NCBI GenBank assembly: GCA_012519905.1 | Contig: JAAYPG010000016.1 | Span: 956 to 64,955, forward strand | DNA from: Clostridiales bacterium | Lineage (GTDB): Bacteria; Bacillota; Clostridia; Lachnospirales; Lachnospiraceae | Direction: 5' to 3' | Length of the DNA stretch: 64,000 bases | Shown here: in pieces, positions 8,901 through 56,375 of the stretch | Position numbering within the stretch: position 1 is the stretch's first letter | Layout of the letters: every line of letters begins with the position of its first letter | The notes under the pieces: model-generated | What the model was told of the DNA's origin: nothing | What the model saw: the letters and a program-made list of their open reading frames with translations, nothing else | Database searches by the model: none | Position numbers and translations under genes: made by a program

Positions 8901-10175
8901 TTATTGTTGAATAGTGATGCCCTCTATAAATCCTTGATAATCTATTTCATCTGCCATCATCTCATTTAGAGTATTATAGTATTGAGCAGAAAGCTCTTCT
9001 GTCATTATTTGATCATAAGCTGGATATAGGGTCCTATTTTTATTGATTTCCCAGATGGAATAAAGTAAGGGGAATTTCTGGGCATCAATACTTTGGTCAC
9101 GATAAACCGGAATTCCTCCCCCGATATCATTTACTATAATATCTGACACCTCATGCATTATGTCTATGTACATATCAATATAATCAGCCTTCTTAGGGAT
9201 AACCCCTTCCTTACTTATAACAAAGGTATCTACTACCCCTCCTATTCCTTCAGTGCTATTACCATTTGGAAAAGGGATTACTTCTACATTATTAGATACC
9301 TTAGAGCCCTCACCCTCAATAAGAGTGGTCGCCCAGCTCCCATAATAGAGCATAGCCCCTTCTCCTTGTGTAAAGGAATAGGCTGCATTATAGGCATCTA
9401 CCTCTAAGTAATCTTCCTGCCAGGCACTTTTTACAACCAAATCATATAATTTATGGGTGGCCTGTATATACTGCGGTGATAAGAATAAGGCTTTTTTGTT
9501 ACTGGCTTGTATTATATTATTACCCGATCCCTCTCCTTGAACTAAACTCATATAGTATAGAGAAGATACCCAGCCTTCCTTAGCACTGGTTATCATAGGT
9601 GTTTTATTCTTTTTATGTAATATATCTATAGTTTCTAATAAATGATTATAGTTCTTTGGGTATTCTAGGTTGTTCTGTTCGAATATATCCCGGTTACAAA
9701 ATAAGGCCGCTGTCCAACCGTAAAGTGGTAGGGCATAAGTCTTATTATTAAAGGTAAAGGCATCTAGCCCCCCTTCAGTAATCTCAGCATTAATCTGCTT
9801 CTTCTCTAATTCATGACTTATATCATATACCATATCCGCATCTACTAATCTTTCCAACTTGCTAAACCCCCACCAGAAAAACATATCTGGCAGATTATTG
9901 GTCATTAAGGCATTATTAATAGCTGCTTGATACACTTCATTTTTATAAACAGTAATATCAAATACTATATTGGGATTATTCTCTTCGTATTTTTTTATAA
10001 CCTTTCTTAAGGTTTCCTCAGTATCGCCATGTATAGTCCATACTGTTATTACCTCATCAGCCTTTTTACTAGCAGGCTCGTCACCCCAGATAAAATCTGA
10101 ATAAATCTTAATTAGAAAGGCACACAAGATAAGAGCTAAGACAATTACCAATCTTGTAAGCTGTTTACTTTTCAT
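8901..10175 (-). CDS. extracellular sugar solute-binding protein (family 1), N-terminal TM anchor, no canonical lipobox
   Basis: ITVWT..., LPDMFF, YALPLY, FTQGEGAMLYYGSW SBP_bac_1 pattern. Confidence 0.8.
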   Translation of the reverse strand: MKSKQLTRLVIVLALILCAFLIKIYSDFIWGDEPASKKADEVITVWTIHGDTEETLRKVIKKYEENNPNIVFDITVYKNEVYQAAINNALMTNNLPDMFFWWGFSKLERLVDADMVYDISHELEKKQINAEITEGGLDAFTFNNKTYALPLYGWTAALFCNRDIFEQNNLEYPKNYNHLLETIDILHKKNKTPMITSAKEGWVSSLYYMSLVQGEGSGNNIIQASNKKALFLSPQYIQATHKLYDLVVKSAWQEDYLEVDAYNAAYSFTQGEGAMLYYGSWATTLIEGEGSKVSNNVEVIPFPNGNSTEGIGGVVDTFVISKEGVIPKKADYIDMYIDIMHEVSDIIVNDIGGGIPVYRDQSIDAQKFPLLYSIWEINKNRTLYPAYDQIMTEELSAQYYNTLNEMMADEIDYQGFIEGITIQQ

Positions 10176-37574: not shown

Positions 37575-38249
37575 ATGAAGGTAGTAGCATTACATGGGCA
37601 GAAGCACAAAGGAAGTACATATCATATAAGTAAAATGCTAATAGATAAGCTAGACTGTGCTAAAGAGGAAGTTAAGGAGTATTATGTAAATGATATCTCT
37701 GATTGTATAGGATGCTTTCAATGCATAATTAAGGGAGAAGACAACTGTCCACATCGTAGCCAGACAGATGATATTATACAAGCAATTGAAGAAGCCGATG
37801 TAATACTTATTGATTCGCCAAATTATGTGATGAATATGTCTGGTCAATTGAAAACATTTTTTGATCACATGGGATACCGGTGGATGCCCCACAGACCACA
37901 CCCTTCAATGAAGCGAAAAATCGGTGTTGCCATCTCAACTACAGCCGGAATGGGAGCGAAAAAAGTTACCAAGCTGATTGCATCCCAGATGTTTTGGTGG
38001 TCAGTAGGCAAAATATATAGAATCCCCGTAGCTGTAGCTGCTATGAGCTGGAATACAGTAAGTGACAATATAAAAACTAAAGTTGAAAAGAAAACTACAA
38101 AAGTAGCTAGAGAAATAAATAGAAAATCTGGGCATATAAAACCTGGGATAAGGACCAAATTTGTGTTTAATATAATAAAGAATATGCATAAGGGACAGGA
38201 TTATAATCTGGTTGATAAAAATTATTGGAAGGATCAGGGTTGGATTTAA
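37575..38249 (+). CDS. flavodoxin-like NADPH-dependent FMN reductase / iron-sulfur flavoprotein
   Basis: CIGCFQC..CP, EADVILIDSPNY, SGQLKTFFD; start moved to 37575 (AAGGAG RBS). Confidence 0.85.
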   Translation: MKVVALHGQKHKGSTYHISKMLIDKLDCAKEEVKEYYVNDISDCIGCFQCIIKGEDNCPHRSQTDDIIQAIEEADVILIDSPNYVMNMSGQLKTFFDHMGYRWMPHRPHPSMKRKIGVAISTTAGMGAKKVTKLIASQMFWWSVGKIYRIPVAVAAMSWNTVSDNIKTKVEKKTTKVAREINRKSGHIKPGIRTKFVFNIIKNMHKGQDYNLVDKNYWKDQGWI

Positions 38250-38258
38250 TTATACATA

Positions 38259-38287
38259 TTGACAGATCTATATTTAGCTGTTAAGAT
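38259..38287 (+). promoter_or_regulatory. sigmaA promoter of the aspS leader
   Basis: TTGACA-17 nt-TAAGAT. Confidence 0.8.
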
Positions 38288-38315
38288 ATCATAAATTTGA
38301 AAGGAAATATTTATC

Positions 38316-38363
38316 ATGCGTAATTTACTTTGTAAGAAGCAGAATAGGGACGACGATTTCTAG
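38316..38363 (+). CDS. candidate aspS leader peptide MRNLLCKKQNRDDDF
   Basis: GAAAGGA RBS at 38299-38305; three consecutive Asp codons GAC GAC GAT two codons before TAG. Confidence 0.75.
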   Translation: MRNLLCKKQNRDDDF

Positions 38364-38477
38364 CGCATGTATCTATGAATTATCAATCATAGGTACACGC
38401 GCTCTTAGTGTTGTGCCTATGTGGAAATATTTCAAAGAGCCACATTGGTAGTTAATATTACTGGTGAGGCTCTTTTT
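38362..38477 (+). promoter_or_regulatory. candidate ribosome-mediated transcription attenuator of aspS
   Basis: Mutually exclusive pairings 1:2, 2:3, 3:4 and a 4:5 terminator (38436-38473) ending in T5. Confidence 0.7.
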
Positions 38478-38618
38478 GTATATATAAACTTTTATACTGA
38501 AGGGAAGTGATGGTATGGGACATTTTGACGATGTCTTTATGGATACGGATAGGCAAAAGGTATTTATTAAATAATTTCTTTTATTAATTATCTATCACGT
38601 TAAAGAATGGAGGTCAAA

Positions 38619-39944
38619 ATGAAGACGCTAAAAGGAATAGTTGAATACCCCAATATGGGAGTCGAGTATATATCCAAGTGTATCGGTAGCAGGTTAAACT
38701 TGCATGGAAGCATCTATAAGATTAGGAAAATGAGTGGTTTTGCTTTTGTCCTACTTAGGACCAAAAGAGATATAATTCAATGTATCTATGGAGAAGATTT
38801 TTCCAATTTCAGTTTAGATATGTTAAAAGAAGAATGCTGCATAAATCTTTCAGCAGATGTCATCAAAGAAGAACGTTCTCGAACAGGATGGGAGCTTAGA
38901 ATGATAGATATTGAAATTTTATCAGAGCCCTTAGCCGAGAGCCCTATTGTTATTAATAATAAACTTGTTGATACCTCCCTCGAAAACCTCTTAGATTATA
39001 GACCTATAACTCTAAGAAACGAAAAGGAAAGAGCTATATTCAAGCTCCAGGAGGGTATATGTAGAGGCTTTCGCAAGTTCTTGTCAGAGCAAGGCTTTAC
39101 TGAAATACATTCCCCAAAAATAGTATCCTCCGGGGCAGAGGGTGGGGCAAATATCTTTCATCTTAACTATTTTGGTGAGGATGCATATCTTGCCCAGAGC
39201 CCACAGTTCTATAAGCAGATGATGGTTGGCGTGTTTGAAAGAGTATACGAAATTGCCCCGGTGTTTCGTGCCGAGAAGCATGATACCTCGAGACATCTCA
39301 ATGAGTATATCAGCGTAGATTTTGAGATGGGGTATATTGAAAGCTTTGAAGACGTAATGAACATGGAGGTTGCTATGCTTAAATACGTTCTTGAAATTCT
39401 AAAAGAAAATTATAGTCATGAACTAGAGCTCCTTAAGGTTACACTTCCAAGTATAACAAGCATACCTTCTATTAAATTTATAGAGGCTAAAGAATTAATA
39501 TCAAGAAAGTACAAAAGAACCATTAGGGATTACGATGATTTTGAACCTGAAGAGGAAAAGTTACTCACAGAAATATTCAAAAAGGAATATAGTTCAGATT
39601 TTGTATTTGTGACCCACTATCCCAGATCAAAAAGACCATTTTATGCTATGGAGGACCCAAGTAATCCTGATGAAACCTTAAGCTTTGACCTGCTCTTTCG
39701 TGGTCTCGAGATAACAACTGGCGGTCAGAGAATCCATAATTACAAAGAGCAGATACAGAAAATGAAGCGGTTAAACATGAACATTGAGCTATTTGAAAGC
39801 TATCTAATGATTCACAAATATGGGATGCCCCCTCATGGTGGCCTAGGTCTTGGATTGGAACGCTTTACTAGCAAGCTTTTAAATCAGGACAATGTAAGAC
39901 TTGCAACCTTATTTCCAAGGGATATCAATCGCGTGACACCCTAA
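38619..39944 (+). CDS. aspS: aspartyl-tRNA synthetase, short archaeal-like (probably non-discriminating) type
   Basis: GAEGG, YLAQSPQFYKQ, FRAEK, EITTGGQR, GMPPHGGLGLGLER, LFPRD; ~441 aa; start moved to 38619 (GGAGGT RBS). Confidence 0.9.
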   Translation: MKTLKGIVEYPNMGVEYISKCIGSRLNLHGSIYKIRKMSGFAFVLLRTKRDIIQCIYGEDFSNFSLDMLKEECCINLSADVIKEERSRTGWELRMIDIEILSEPLAESPIVINNKLVDTSLENLLDYRPITLRNEKERAIFKLQEGICRGFRKFLSEQGFTEIHSPKIVSSGAEGGANIFHLNYFGEDAYLAQSPQFYKQMMVGVFERVYEIAPVFRAEKHDTSRHLNEYISVDFEMGYIESFEDVMNMEVAMLKYVLEILKENYSHELELLKVTLPSITSIPSIKFIEAKELISRKYKRTIRDYDDFEPEEEKLLTEIFKKEYSSDFVFVTHYPRSKRPFYAMEDPSNPDETLSFDLLFRGLEITTGGQRIHNYKEQIQKMKRLNMNIELFESYLMIHKYGMPPHGGLGLGLERFTSKLLNQDNVRLATLFPRDINRVTP

Positions 39945-39946
39945 TG

Positions 39947-39976
39947 TGTACCCGGTACAAATCTGTACCGGGTACC
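39947..39976. repeat. palindrome family, paired copies forming a 12-bp hairpin right after the aspS stop
   Basis: GTACCCGGTACA-AATC-TGTACCGGGTAC. Confidence 0.75.
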
Positions 39977-40267: not shown

Positions 40268-40362
40268 TGTACCAATGTAAAGTGTACCAATGTAAAGTGT
40301 GTAAAGTGTACCGGGTACACTAGCTGTACCCGGTACACTTTACACGGTACACTTTACATTGA
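40268..40362. repeat. expanded palindrome-family element with AATGTAAAGTGT sub-repeats
   Basis: CAATGTAAAGTGTACC (40273-40288) and GTGTAAAGTGTACCGGGTACA (40299-40319) are exact reverse complements of the right arm starting at 40325. Confidence 0.8.
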
Positions 40363-56175: not shown

Positions 56176-56185
56176 TGATATTACT

Positions 56186-56258
56186 GGGGCATTAGCGCAG
56201 CTGGGAGCGCACCACACTGGCAGTGTGGGGGTCAGGGGTTCGAATCCCCTATGCTCCA
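56186..56258 (+). tRNA. tRNA-Ala (GGC)
   Basis: Acceptor GGGGCAT/ATGCTCC, anticodon arm CCACA-CTGGCAG-TGTGG, TTCGAA loop; CCA not encoded. Confidence 0.95.
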
Positions 56259-56294
56259 TTTAATTATCATTAATTATATATACATTAATATTTT

Positions 56295-56368
56295 GGAGTC
56301 ATAGCTCAGCTGGGACGAGCGTTCGCTTGACGTGCGAAAGGTCATGGGTTCGAACCCCTTTGACTCCA
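56295..56368 (+). tRNA. tRNA-Val (GAC)
   Basis: Acceptor GGAGTCA/TGACTCC, anticodon arm TTCGC-TTGACGT-GCGAA, TTCGAA loop; one T-stem mismatch; CCA not encoded. Confidence 0.9.
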
Positions 56369-56375
56369 TTATGCT

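Follow-up and report, generated by a model that had tools for sequence, protein, structure and literature searches.

The window analysed here is a stretch of 64,000 nucleotides from a Clostridiales bacterium of the family Lachnospiraceae (GenBank assembly GCA_012519905.1, contig JAAYPG010000016.1, positions 956 to 64,955 of the forward strand). Upstream of aspS, its gene for an aspartyl-tRNA synthetase (AspRS) annotated as non-discriminating (ndAspRS), lies a leader that, in our model, very probably works as a ribosome-mediated transcription attenuator, reading the supply of Asp-tRNA(Asp) and setting the transcription of the ndAspRS gene by it. The leader has a short upstream open reading frame (uORF1) with a coding signature and a set of alternative helices, which are conserved and covary in relatives; it is linked almost exclusively to this one gene, and it has no T-box. 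An earlier note, made from the sequence of this DNA alone, had proposed an Asp-codon leader-peptide attenuator in place of a T-box; that core proposal is supported in silico by the coding frame, the Asp triplet, the helices, the folding of ribosome-masked leaders and the lack of a T-box, and the promoter, Shine-Dalgarno (SD) sequence, reading frame, five RNA segments and terminator that it had drawn are all present at the positions it gave. A sixth segment, segment 0, joins them in the following list, in which positions are those of the window.

38259 to 38287, + strand: sigma-A type promoter TTGACA-17-TAAGAT with a TG extension (promoter scan)
about 38294, + strand: predicted transcription start, from the position of the promoter
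38300 to 38305, + strand: SD sequence of uORF1, AAAGGA, 10 nucleotides 5' of the ATG, read from the sequence
38316 to 38363, + strand: uORF1, encoding the putative leader peptide MRNLLCKKQNRDDDF of 15 amino acids, which ends in NRDDDF before the stop (ATG at 38316, TAG at 38361-38363)
38349 to 38357, + strand: putative regulatory Asp codons GAC GAC GAU
38344 to 38355, + strand: segment 0, AUAGG.ACGACG, with segment 3 as its partner around the 1:2 hairpin (minimum free energy (MFE) fold)
38362 to 38378, + strand: segment 1, 5' arm of the 1:2 hairpin, overlapping the UAG stop
38387 to 38403, + strand: segment 2, 3' arm of 1:2, whose CAUAGGUACA is an alternative partner of segment 3
38409 to 38424, + strand: segment 3, the pivot UGUUGUGCCUAUGUGG, with segments 0, 2 and 4 as alternative partners
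38436 to 38452, + strand: segment 4, 5' arm of the terminator, of which 38440-38450 also lie in the 3:4 antiterminator
38457 to 38477, + strand: segment 5, 3' arm of the terminator with the T5 run at 38473-38477
38609 to 38613, + strand: SD sequence of aspS, GGAGG, read from the sequence

The leader RNA (38294-38480) folds with an MFE of -66.7 kcal/mol, as against -37.7 +/- 3.9 kcal/mol for dinucleotide shuffles (z = -7.5; 0 of 200 as good). Its 1:2 helix (38362-38378 with 38387-38403) is paired at 16 of 17 positions, with one A.C mismatch and one G.U pair (-22.4 kcal/mol), the 2:3 helix has 10 base pairs (-11.7 kcal/mol), the 3:4 helix is paired at 10 of 11 positions (-11.1 kcal/mol), and the 4:5 terminator hairpin (38436-38473; -19.2 kcal/mol) is followed by T5. 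This last hairpin was missed by a simple terminator scan of the window, probably because its uninterrupted inner stem comprises only 2 G-C pairs before an A.A mismatch. In the MFE fold, AUAGG (38344-48) pairs with CCUAU (38416-20) and ACGACG (38350-55) with UGUUGU (38409-14), forming the 0:3 helix; together with 1:2 it reaches -36.9 kcal/mol versus -22.4 kcal/mol for 1:2 alone, a gain of about 14.5 kcal/mol, and segment 0 (AAUAGGGAC) is close to a copy of segment 2 (CAUAGGUAC). The 3:4 helix shares the 5' arm of the terminator and is mutually exclusive with it, and 2:3 and 0:3 compete for segment 3; the combined energies are -56.1 kcal/mol for 0:3 with 1:2 and 4:5, -33.5 kcal/mol for 1:2 with 3:4 and -30.9 kcal/mol for 2:3 with 4:5. 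The earlier note had placed the upstream frame directly before the synthetase gene, whereas aspS starts at 38619, 255 nucleotides past the uORF1 stop, and a second conserved frame (uORF2) lies between the two. A separate feature of the window's leader, shared by its closest relatives L001 and L002, is that the stretch around the uORF1 SD sequence, GGAAAUAUUU (38303-38312), is complementary to the 3:4 loop (38424-38433); this could be a lineage-specific pseudoknot or sequestration of the SD sequence.

The scheme we propose is as follows. Transcription would start near 38294 and a ribosome would load on uORF1 at once, and six segments (0, formed by AUAGG and the Asp codons, and 1, 2, 3, 4 and 5) would then compete for partners. 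With no ribosome, or once the ribosome has been released, 1:2 would form and segment 0 would zip onto segment 3 around it; with 0:3 in place segment 4 would be left free, 4:5 would form and RNA polymerase would stop at the T-run (38473-38477). A ribosome at the UAG (38361) would cover most of segment 1, giving 2:3, then 4:5, and again termination. A ribosome awaiting Asp-tRNA, with the first or second Asp codon (Asp1, Asp2) in its A site, would cover segment 0 and leave segment 1 exposed, in which case 1:2 would hold segment 2, and segment 3, lacking an upstream partner, would capture segment 4 as it emerges; once 3:4 had formed there would be no terminator, and transcription would continue into aspS. 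The translation of uORF1, termination at the T-run, the selection of 3:4 by the stall and the limits of the ribosome footprint are what we infer in this model.

The regulated gene lies downstream as follows.

38619 to 39944, + strand: aspS, predicted archaeal-type non-discriminating aspartyl-tRNA synthetase of 441 amino acids (profile match)
39948 to 39975, + strand: intrinsic terminator of aspS (terminator scan)

The aspS product matches NF003483 (aspartate--tRNA(Asn) ligase) with 546.6 bits against a cut-off of 353, and the bacterial aspS models match it only partially; judged by these profiles, the regulated enzyme is an archaeal-type AspRS annotated as non-discriminating and not the 590-residue bacterial AspS. 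On this point the earlier note, which had spoken simply of aspS, is corrected. With its own terminator at 39948-39975, aspS would be monocistronic, and the next gene, for an esterase, has a perfect promoter at 40359. The gap between aspS and the esterase gene contains two strong terminator-like palindromes, at 39948-39975 (+ strand) and 40299-40345 (- strand), with the common core GTACCCGGTAC/GTACCGGGTAC, which look like a repeated palindromic element. The exact aspS protein and its locus were found in metagenomes from biogas fermenters, compost and manure, and the closest genome matches to the product are Herbinix metagenome-assembled genomes, at 80-84% identity. An ortholog scan with one genome per species returned 80 loci of 56-84% identity, nearly all of them from Lachnospiraceae, among which are the genera Herbinix, Anaerocolumna, Lacrimispora, Hungatella, Roseburia, Acetatifactor, Fusicatenibacter, Dorea, Blautia, Eisenbergiella and Kineothrix.

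About 75 of these 80 genomes have the leader in front of the orthologous gene. A covariance model (R1), built from a MAFFT alignment of 31 leaders, matches in a single copy per locus, always 5' of aspS and on the coding strand; neither the rest of the 64-kb window nor the flanks of the loci contain another. A scan of metagenome contigs by DNA pattern only, using no protein information, returned 119 loci, of which 87 also carry the segment-3 motif; where a complete element was followed by at least 700 nucleotides of sequence, an AspRS homolog stood downstream in 66 of 70 cases. Three of the four exceptions are contigs that hold the first aspS codons and then diverge, which we read as assembly chimeras, and the fourth is an orphan copy. 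That copy (metagenome contig L172, near locus position 9622, - strand) has the element and the terminator with no aspS behind them, apparently fused to the end of an upstream ORF, and may be orphan or decaying. The linkage of leader and aspS is strict across about 140 loci.

A small upstream ORF ending in LNRDDD(x) is present in about 60 of the 80 loci, and its reading frame was studied in 72 leaders anchored on the Asp triplet. Nearly all 72 have an SD-like motif before the in-frame ATG, and the SD-preceded ATG lies 33 nucleotides upstream of Asp1 at 39 sites and 36 nucleotides upstream at 26. Counted over the interval 13-60 nucleotides upstream of the Asp codons, 74 SD-preceded ATGs are in frame and 2 out of frame; over the 30 nucleotides before the Asp codons, stop codons number 1 in the uORF1 frame versus 95 and 89 in the other two. 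The in-frame stop directly after the Asp codons is kept, the N-terminal residues of the peptide are not conserved, and in 43 of 62 relatives the -10 element of the best promoter-like site (at least 9 of 12) ends 25-34 nucleotides 5' of the uORF1 ATG. Judged on these patterns, uORF1 looks like a frame that is translated right at the 5' end of the transcript.

The earlier note had looked to relatives for conservation of the Asp run, and this was found: among 108 distinct leaders from genomes and metagenomes, Asp stands at all three positions in 104 and D-N-D in 3, in a set that was partly selected for the triplet, the metagenome members having been retrieved by a triplet-containing pattern whose regular expression admits no further variants. 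No replacement but Asn at the middle codon occurs within this set; outside it, D-T-D occurs in locus L058 and D-A-D (GAC GCT GAT) in locus L059. Another regularity in the 108 leaders concerns codon -2 of uORF1 (window 38343-38345), which is always NAY (Asn 75, His 22, Tyr 8), most likely as a result of the pairing constraint on AYAGG.

Conservation of the helices was followed in the MAFFT alignment of 31 leaders, which had not been fitted to any structure, and in a 70-row model alignment fitted to 0:3, 1:2 and 4:5 and not to 2:3 or 3:4. In the former, 96.5% of cells are paired for 0:3, 93.4% for 1:2, 99.4% for 2:3, 84.5% for 3:4 and 87.2% for 4:5, as compared with 18-59% when the 3' partners were slid by 1-3 columns as a control; in the latter, the figures are 93.3% for 0:3, 92.9% for 1:2 and 87.7% for 4:5, and over both alignments 2:3 is paired at 97.9-99.4% and 3:4 at 82-85%. 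Changes on both sides occur at 16 of 16 pairs of the 4:5 terminator and at 9 of 16 pairs of 1:2 (70 rows), and covarying pairs number two in 2:3, two in 3:4 and one in 0:3. All four helices drawn by the earlier note are thus conserved with covariation, and a hairpin with a T-run is present in 64 of 72 relatives. One column of segment 3 (A or G in CCURUG) varies together with all of its partners: against segment 0 the combinations are UA 46, CG 13 and UG 7, against segment 2 UA 44, CG 16 and UG 4, and against segment 4 AU 43, GC 9 and GU 8. Such three-way covariation is as expected of a pivot strand with three alternative partners, which would also account for the strong sequence conservation of the core. 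Hairpin loops, linkers and the spacer between segments 3 and 4 are free to vary both in sequence and in length, which is what a constraint on pairing alone would give, and this speaks against a pocket for a ligand or protein. A subfamily of five loci (L047, L055, L057, L067 and L076) has segments 2, 3 and 4 rewritten (CCACGGC / GCCGUGG / ACCAUGG) with all pairings kept; its uORF1 still reads ..ACAGG GAC GAC GAU, and the complementarity of this stretch to segment 3 is weaker by eye.

The effect of a ribosome on these choices was modelled by masked folding of 61 leaders cut just before segment 5, with a footprint of 27 nucleotides that reaches from -15 to +11 relative to the first base of the A site, the partner of segment 3 being scored. 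This scoring of cut transcripts was used instead of a full-length mask test, which was non-discriminating, and of counting any pairing of the terminator 5' arm, which was too noisy. In the masked MFE folds, segment 3 pairs with segment 0 in 46 of 61 leaders when no ribosome is present, and with segment 4 in 46 of 61 when the A site is on Asp1, and likewise when it is on Asp2. With the A site on Asp3 its partner is segment 4 in 35 leaders and segment 2 in 22 (57 of 61), and with the A site on the stop codon it is segment 2 in 46 of 61. Read-through is thus predicted where the ribosome covers segment 0 but not segment 1, that is, at the Asp codons. These folds agree with the earlier logic for a stalled ribosome (3:4 at Asp1 and Asp2) and for one at the stop (2:3), but its view that an untranslated leader reads through by default is reversed by the sixth segment: given the 0:3 pairing, which is in the MFE fold and is 93-97% paired in relatives, segment 3 would be held and termination is the outcome predicted without translation (46 of 61 leaders).

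Other known regulators were sought in the same region. The window contains no Rfam family at gathering threshold apart from two tRNAs, and at E<=10 the region 38150-38700 shows no T-box and no His, Trp, Thr, Leu or leu/phe leader family; its best matches are chance ones to terminator-like hairpins (P37, 24 bits versus a threshold of 50). No T-box motif of the GGGUGGNACC type occurs in the window or in the leader-bearing loci, the Rfam scans revealed no Stem I, specifier loop or T-box sequence in the leader, and no mimic of the GUC anticodon was found in it. The earlier statement that there is no T-box here therefore stands, both at the gathering threshold (93 bits for RF00230) and at E<=10. 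Elsewhere in the window, tandem genes for tRNA-Ala(GGC) and tRNA-Val(GAC) lie at 56185-56369.

The most distant orthologs (L074, L075, L077 and L078, 56-60% identity) lack the leader and have a T-box, with RF00230 scores of 108.9 bits in L077, 51.2 in L075 and 42.3 in L074 and L078, L077 and L075 serving as positive controls. Their T-boxes indicate that control by tRNA charging is the normal state of the gene and that the Lachnospiraceae lineage changed the sensor. Aligned to RF00230, L077 and L075 appear to have AAC, for Asn, as their specifier, which fits a role of ndAspRS in making Asn-tRNA(Asn); an Asn T-box has reportedly been described for the tRNA-dependent asparagine operon of Clostridium acetobutylicum (by Saad and colleagues, in 2012). 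The idea that the leader replaces a T-box thus holds as far as the T-box is absent here and present on distant orthologs, but the T-box replaced reads Asn (AAC) and not Asp, and the new sensor may guard Asp-tRNA(Asp), Asn-tRNA(Asn) or both. Two of these T-box-controlled orthologs have a glycine riboswitch aptamer about 2.8 kb upstream (L074 99-191 and L078 82-174, both - strand), which is unrelated.

Several points weigh against attenuation by the supply of Asp-tRNA(Asp). The synonymous sites of the Asp codons are nearly frozen (GAC in 107 of 107, GAC in 98 and GAU in 105 for the three positions, with Arg always AGG), so that conservation of the triplet is partly an RNA-pairing constraint and alone no proof of codon function, and the D-to-N variants retain the 0:3 pair, G.U becoming A-U. 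In the masked folds, 15 of 61 leaders depart from the predicted default and form 3:4 without a ribosome, and those of the window's own leader are ambiguous (5' untranslated region pairing at Asp1, 2:3 at Asp2, 3:4 at Asp3), because its AU-rich 5' untranslated region (GGAAAUAUUU) pairs with the 3:4 loop and an MFE fold cannot combine such a pseudoknot-type contact with 3:4. When full-length leaders are folded at equilibrium, the terminator appears in 84-92% of them under every mask, so the switch must be kinetic, and the edges of a stalled ribosome and of one at the stop are only 6-12 nucleotides apart, which makes the logic dependent on the assumed footprint limits. Coupling of transcription and translation is said to be weak in B. 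subtilis, according to work by Johnson and colleagues from 2020. Finally, eight metatranscriptome runs (compost, sludge and biogas) showed low-level expression of aspS, on contigs of 2-30x, and two stray leader contigs of depth 2-4 (38208-38454 and 38429-38605); these contigs are too sparse to show or exclude a 3' end at the T-run, and among cultured relatives, searched with the loci of L. phytofermentans and Kineothrix, there were no usable runs.

Among the alternatives, the one that survives best, improbable as we hold it to be, keeps the ribosome and changes the signal: the nascent ..K-L-N-R-D-D-D would itself arrest or destabilise the ribosome, either as an acidic run whose intrinsic destabilisation senses Mg2+ or through an arrest of the TnaC/ErmCL type that depends on a drug or metabolite. 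Short acidic runs near the N-terminus can reportedly destabilise ribosomes, as Chadani and colleagues are said to have found in 2017. Just before the Asp run the residues are semi-conserved and the codons for them change synonymously, with Leu or Met at position -3 (CTG 28, TTG 19, CTT 7, ATG 23) and Lys at position -4 (AAA 28, AAG 16), but the peptide shows no conservation in its N-terminal half, and uORF2 again retains Asp codons with free synonymous choice. The distance from start to Asp, fixed at 11-12 codons, is not obviously required by a starvation sensor either, but the regulated gene is essentially always AspRS, and its orthologs elsewhere are under T-box control, so that the simplest signal would be the decoding of Asp codons.

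Less likely still is a riboswitch-like or factor-binding RNA in which the ORF is incidental and Asp or Asn, a tRNA or AspRS binds the stacked 0:3/1:2 helices. AspRS and ThrRS are known to autoregulate by binding mRNA in other organisms, the core of the leader is conserved at the nucleotide level including its synonymous sites (AAYAGG GAC GAC GAU, AGCGC, CAUAGGURCA.GCGCU, GUGUUGURCCUAUGUGG), and the untranslated MFE fold is a long stable helical stack followed by a terminator, like an aptamer with its expression platform. An RNA that binds a ligand or protein, however, needs no in-frame SD-preceded ATG at 11-12 codons (74 versus 2), no depletion of stops in one frame (1 versus 95 and 89) and no in-frame stop after the Asp codons; the conservation sits in helices with several partners, whereas the loops and linkers that would form a pocket vary in sequence and length, and neither an anticodon mimic (GUC) nor a T-box sequence or Rfam match was found in the leader. 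A metabolite riboswitch or protein-binding element was rejected on the reading-frame constraint and the variable loops. The weakest alternative, that there is no regulated switch and uORF1 is a small gene or leader with a constitutive terminator, aspS being transcribed from a separate promoter or by leakage, is hardly credible: it suits a terminator that forms at equilibrium in nearly every modelled state and a metatranscriptome contig (X31), whose start 5' of the promoter means that other transcripts may cross the region, but it leaves unexplained the alternatives 2:3 and 3:4, which covary and overlap with the arm of the terminator, the three-way covariation of segment 3 and the strict linkage to aspS (about 140 loci), and the promoter scan found no promoter-like site between the leader terminator and aspS in the window.

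The preferred reading, an attenuator that senses Asp-tRNA(Asp), concerns the first part of the leader; the second Asp-codon frame, uORF2, lies behind the terminator and comprises the following features.

38499 to 38511, + strand: extended SD sequence of uORF2, GAAGGGAAGUGAU
38515 to 38574, + strand: uORF2, encoding MGHFDDVFMDTDRQKVFIK before the stop (MGHFDDVFMD...), between the terminator and aspS
38518 to 38536, + strand: hairpin GGACA/UGUCU just past the uORF2 start, whose loop contains the first Asp codon

uORF2 is present in 67 of 81 loci, with a D-N variant in locus L026, and starts with ATG in 55, GTG in 7 and TTG in 3. Its SD sequence matches 11-13 of the 15 bases of AGAAAGGAGGUGAUC in relatives, AGAAAGGAGGUGAUC being the complement of the 3' tail of 16S rRNA. 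At codon 10 every distinct leader has Asp (65 of 65) and the adjacent codon 9 varies; codon 5 shows free synonymous choice (GAC 36, GAT 29), Asp at that place being required by the regular expression; and codon 6 is GAU or UAU, or AAU in L026. We count codons 5 and 10 in favour of the attenuator, as a sign that Asp codons have been selected independently a second time within one leader. Codons 3, 5, 6 and 10 of uORF2, like codon -2 of uORF1, are read by tRNAs able to carry queuosine. The hairpin has 5-6 base pairs in relatives (GGRCAU/AUGYCC), with compensatory changes of GC, AU and CG types at 3 of 5 predicted pairs. The C-terminus and stop position of uORF2 vary, and in Lacrimispora its stop overlaps the aspS start as UAAUG. 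About 8-9 loci lack uORF2, and in most of these aspS follows almost directly after the terminator; locus L079 has uORF2 alone, without the first element. These patterns indicate that uORF2 is an accessory module.

No second intrinsic terminator follows uORF2 consistently in the related loci, and the region 38479-38640 is not unusually structured (z = -1.3). uORF2 would most likely add a post-transcriptional, Asp-dependent checkpoint, which we offer as a hypothesis only, in that a ribosome stalled on it could unmask the ribosome-binding site (RBS) of aspS, in a form of translational attenuation, or shield the 5' region of the mRNA. The 3' arm of the uORF2 hairpin is complementary to the aspS RBS at -6.9 kcal/mol versus -4.7 kcal/mol for shuffled sequences (p about 1e-8); the MFE fold forms this pairing in only 13 of 63 leaders, and the distance between the two ranges from 55 to 491 nucleotides. 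In five loci (L007, L008, L010, L011 and L019) a clade-specific conserved hairpin, GACCGGCUGUGUCUGCGCUAUGGCACGGUACGGUC, lies between uORF2 and the aspS RBS, just 5' of the SD sequence. More speculatively, and less likely than not in our view, the two frames might form a two-stage Asp-tRNA sensor that arose in an ancestor of the Lachnospiraceae and displaced the Asn T-box, the attenuator acting first and uORF2 then raising aspS translation or protecting the read-through mRNA against decay from its 5' end. If true, this would be a composite ribosome-based sensor of a kind not known for any synthetase gene, and it would report naturally on how transcription and translation are coupled in Clostridia.

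From a broader point of view, synthetase genes are the textbook domain of the T-box in Firmicutes, and an Asp-specific leader attenuator stands out there. An attenuator read by the ribosome would control the AspRS gene throughout a family that includes many dominant genera of gut, rumen and biogas communities (Roseburia, Blautia, Dorea, Fusicatenibacter, Lacrimispora and Herbinix), and this would be a clean natural case of the replacement of one sensor by another on a single gene. The proposed mechanism would imply that in Clostridia the ribosome is close enough behind RNA polymerase to decide on termination, and it bears on how widely the "runaway transcription" reported for B. subtilis applies. 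In practice, hundreds of genomes in which this stretch is now an empty gap of 350 nucleotides can be annotated with the covariance model and the two uORFs, and uORF2 is a separate, well-conserved element worth a study of its own.

With regard to known systems, no Asp-codon leader or aspS attenuator was found in the full-text literature searched and no family in Rfam 15 matches, in line with the earlier note, which knew of no described Asp-sensing attenuator. By analogy, the closest functional counterpart of the aspS leader would be pheST of E. coli, in which a leader peptide with Phe codons controls phenylalanyl-tRNA synthetase. In both, a synthetase gene stands under a leader peptide that contains codons of its own amino acid, with alternative hairpins and an intrinsic terminator, and charged tRNA would be the signal; pheST, however, is proteobacterial, senses Phe and shares no sequence similarity with the aspS leader, which has Asp codons, six segments with segment 0 folded around 1:2, and a second uORF. 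The closest architecture appears to be that of the enterobacterial his attenuator (Rfam His_leader, RF00514), which also has six segments, A-F; in it, termination follows when the leader is not translated or the ribosome has reached the stop, and a stall on the regulatory codons masks the first segment to give the antiterminator. There, A pairs with B and the regulatory codons are seven, whereas the aspS leader would pair 0 with 3 across 1:2 and use three codons. The Asn T-box on ndAspRS (L075, L077) has the same orthologous gene, position, terminator/antiterminator output and tRNA-charging signal in common with the leader, but it binds uncharged tRNA directly and reads AAC, whereas the aspS leader would need a translating ribosome and read Asp codons.

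Ribosome-mediated attenuators have also been described in Firmicutes, and the earlier statement that they are mainly proteobacterial is softened by these published cases (PMC2965389, PMC9413887, PMC4191407). In B. subtilis, ribosome-mediated transcription attenuation has been shown experimentally for bmrCD (PMC4191407). As in bmrB-bmrCD and the erm/cat leaders, a ribosome stalled on a leader ORF would select between RNA structures in a Firmicute, and these systems are a possible model for uORF2; they differ in sensing ribosome-targeting antibiotics and not the supply of one aminoacyl-tRNA. The mechanism as modelled belongs to the class of classical leader-peptide attenuators, its unusual features being segment 0 around 1:2 and the second Asp-codon uORF. 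Its closest phylogenetic context would be the His leaders of Firmicutes, namely, in the Bacillus cereus group, the His leader peptides that precede hisZ and a hisS paralog (Naville & Gautheret 2010, PMC2965389) and, in Peptostreptococcaceae and Erysipelotrichales, His-leader attenuators (PMC9413887). Like the aspS leader, these are regular attenuators where relatives use a T-box, and one of them controls a synthetase paralog. They concern another amino acid, gene and lineage, were predicted in few species and have no second uORF, whereas the aspS leader is family-wide, with more than 100 distinct leaders.

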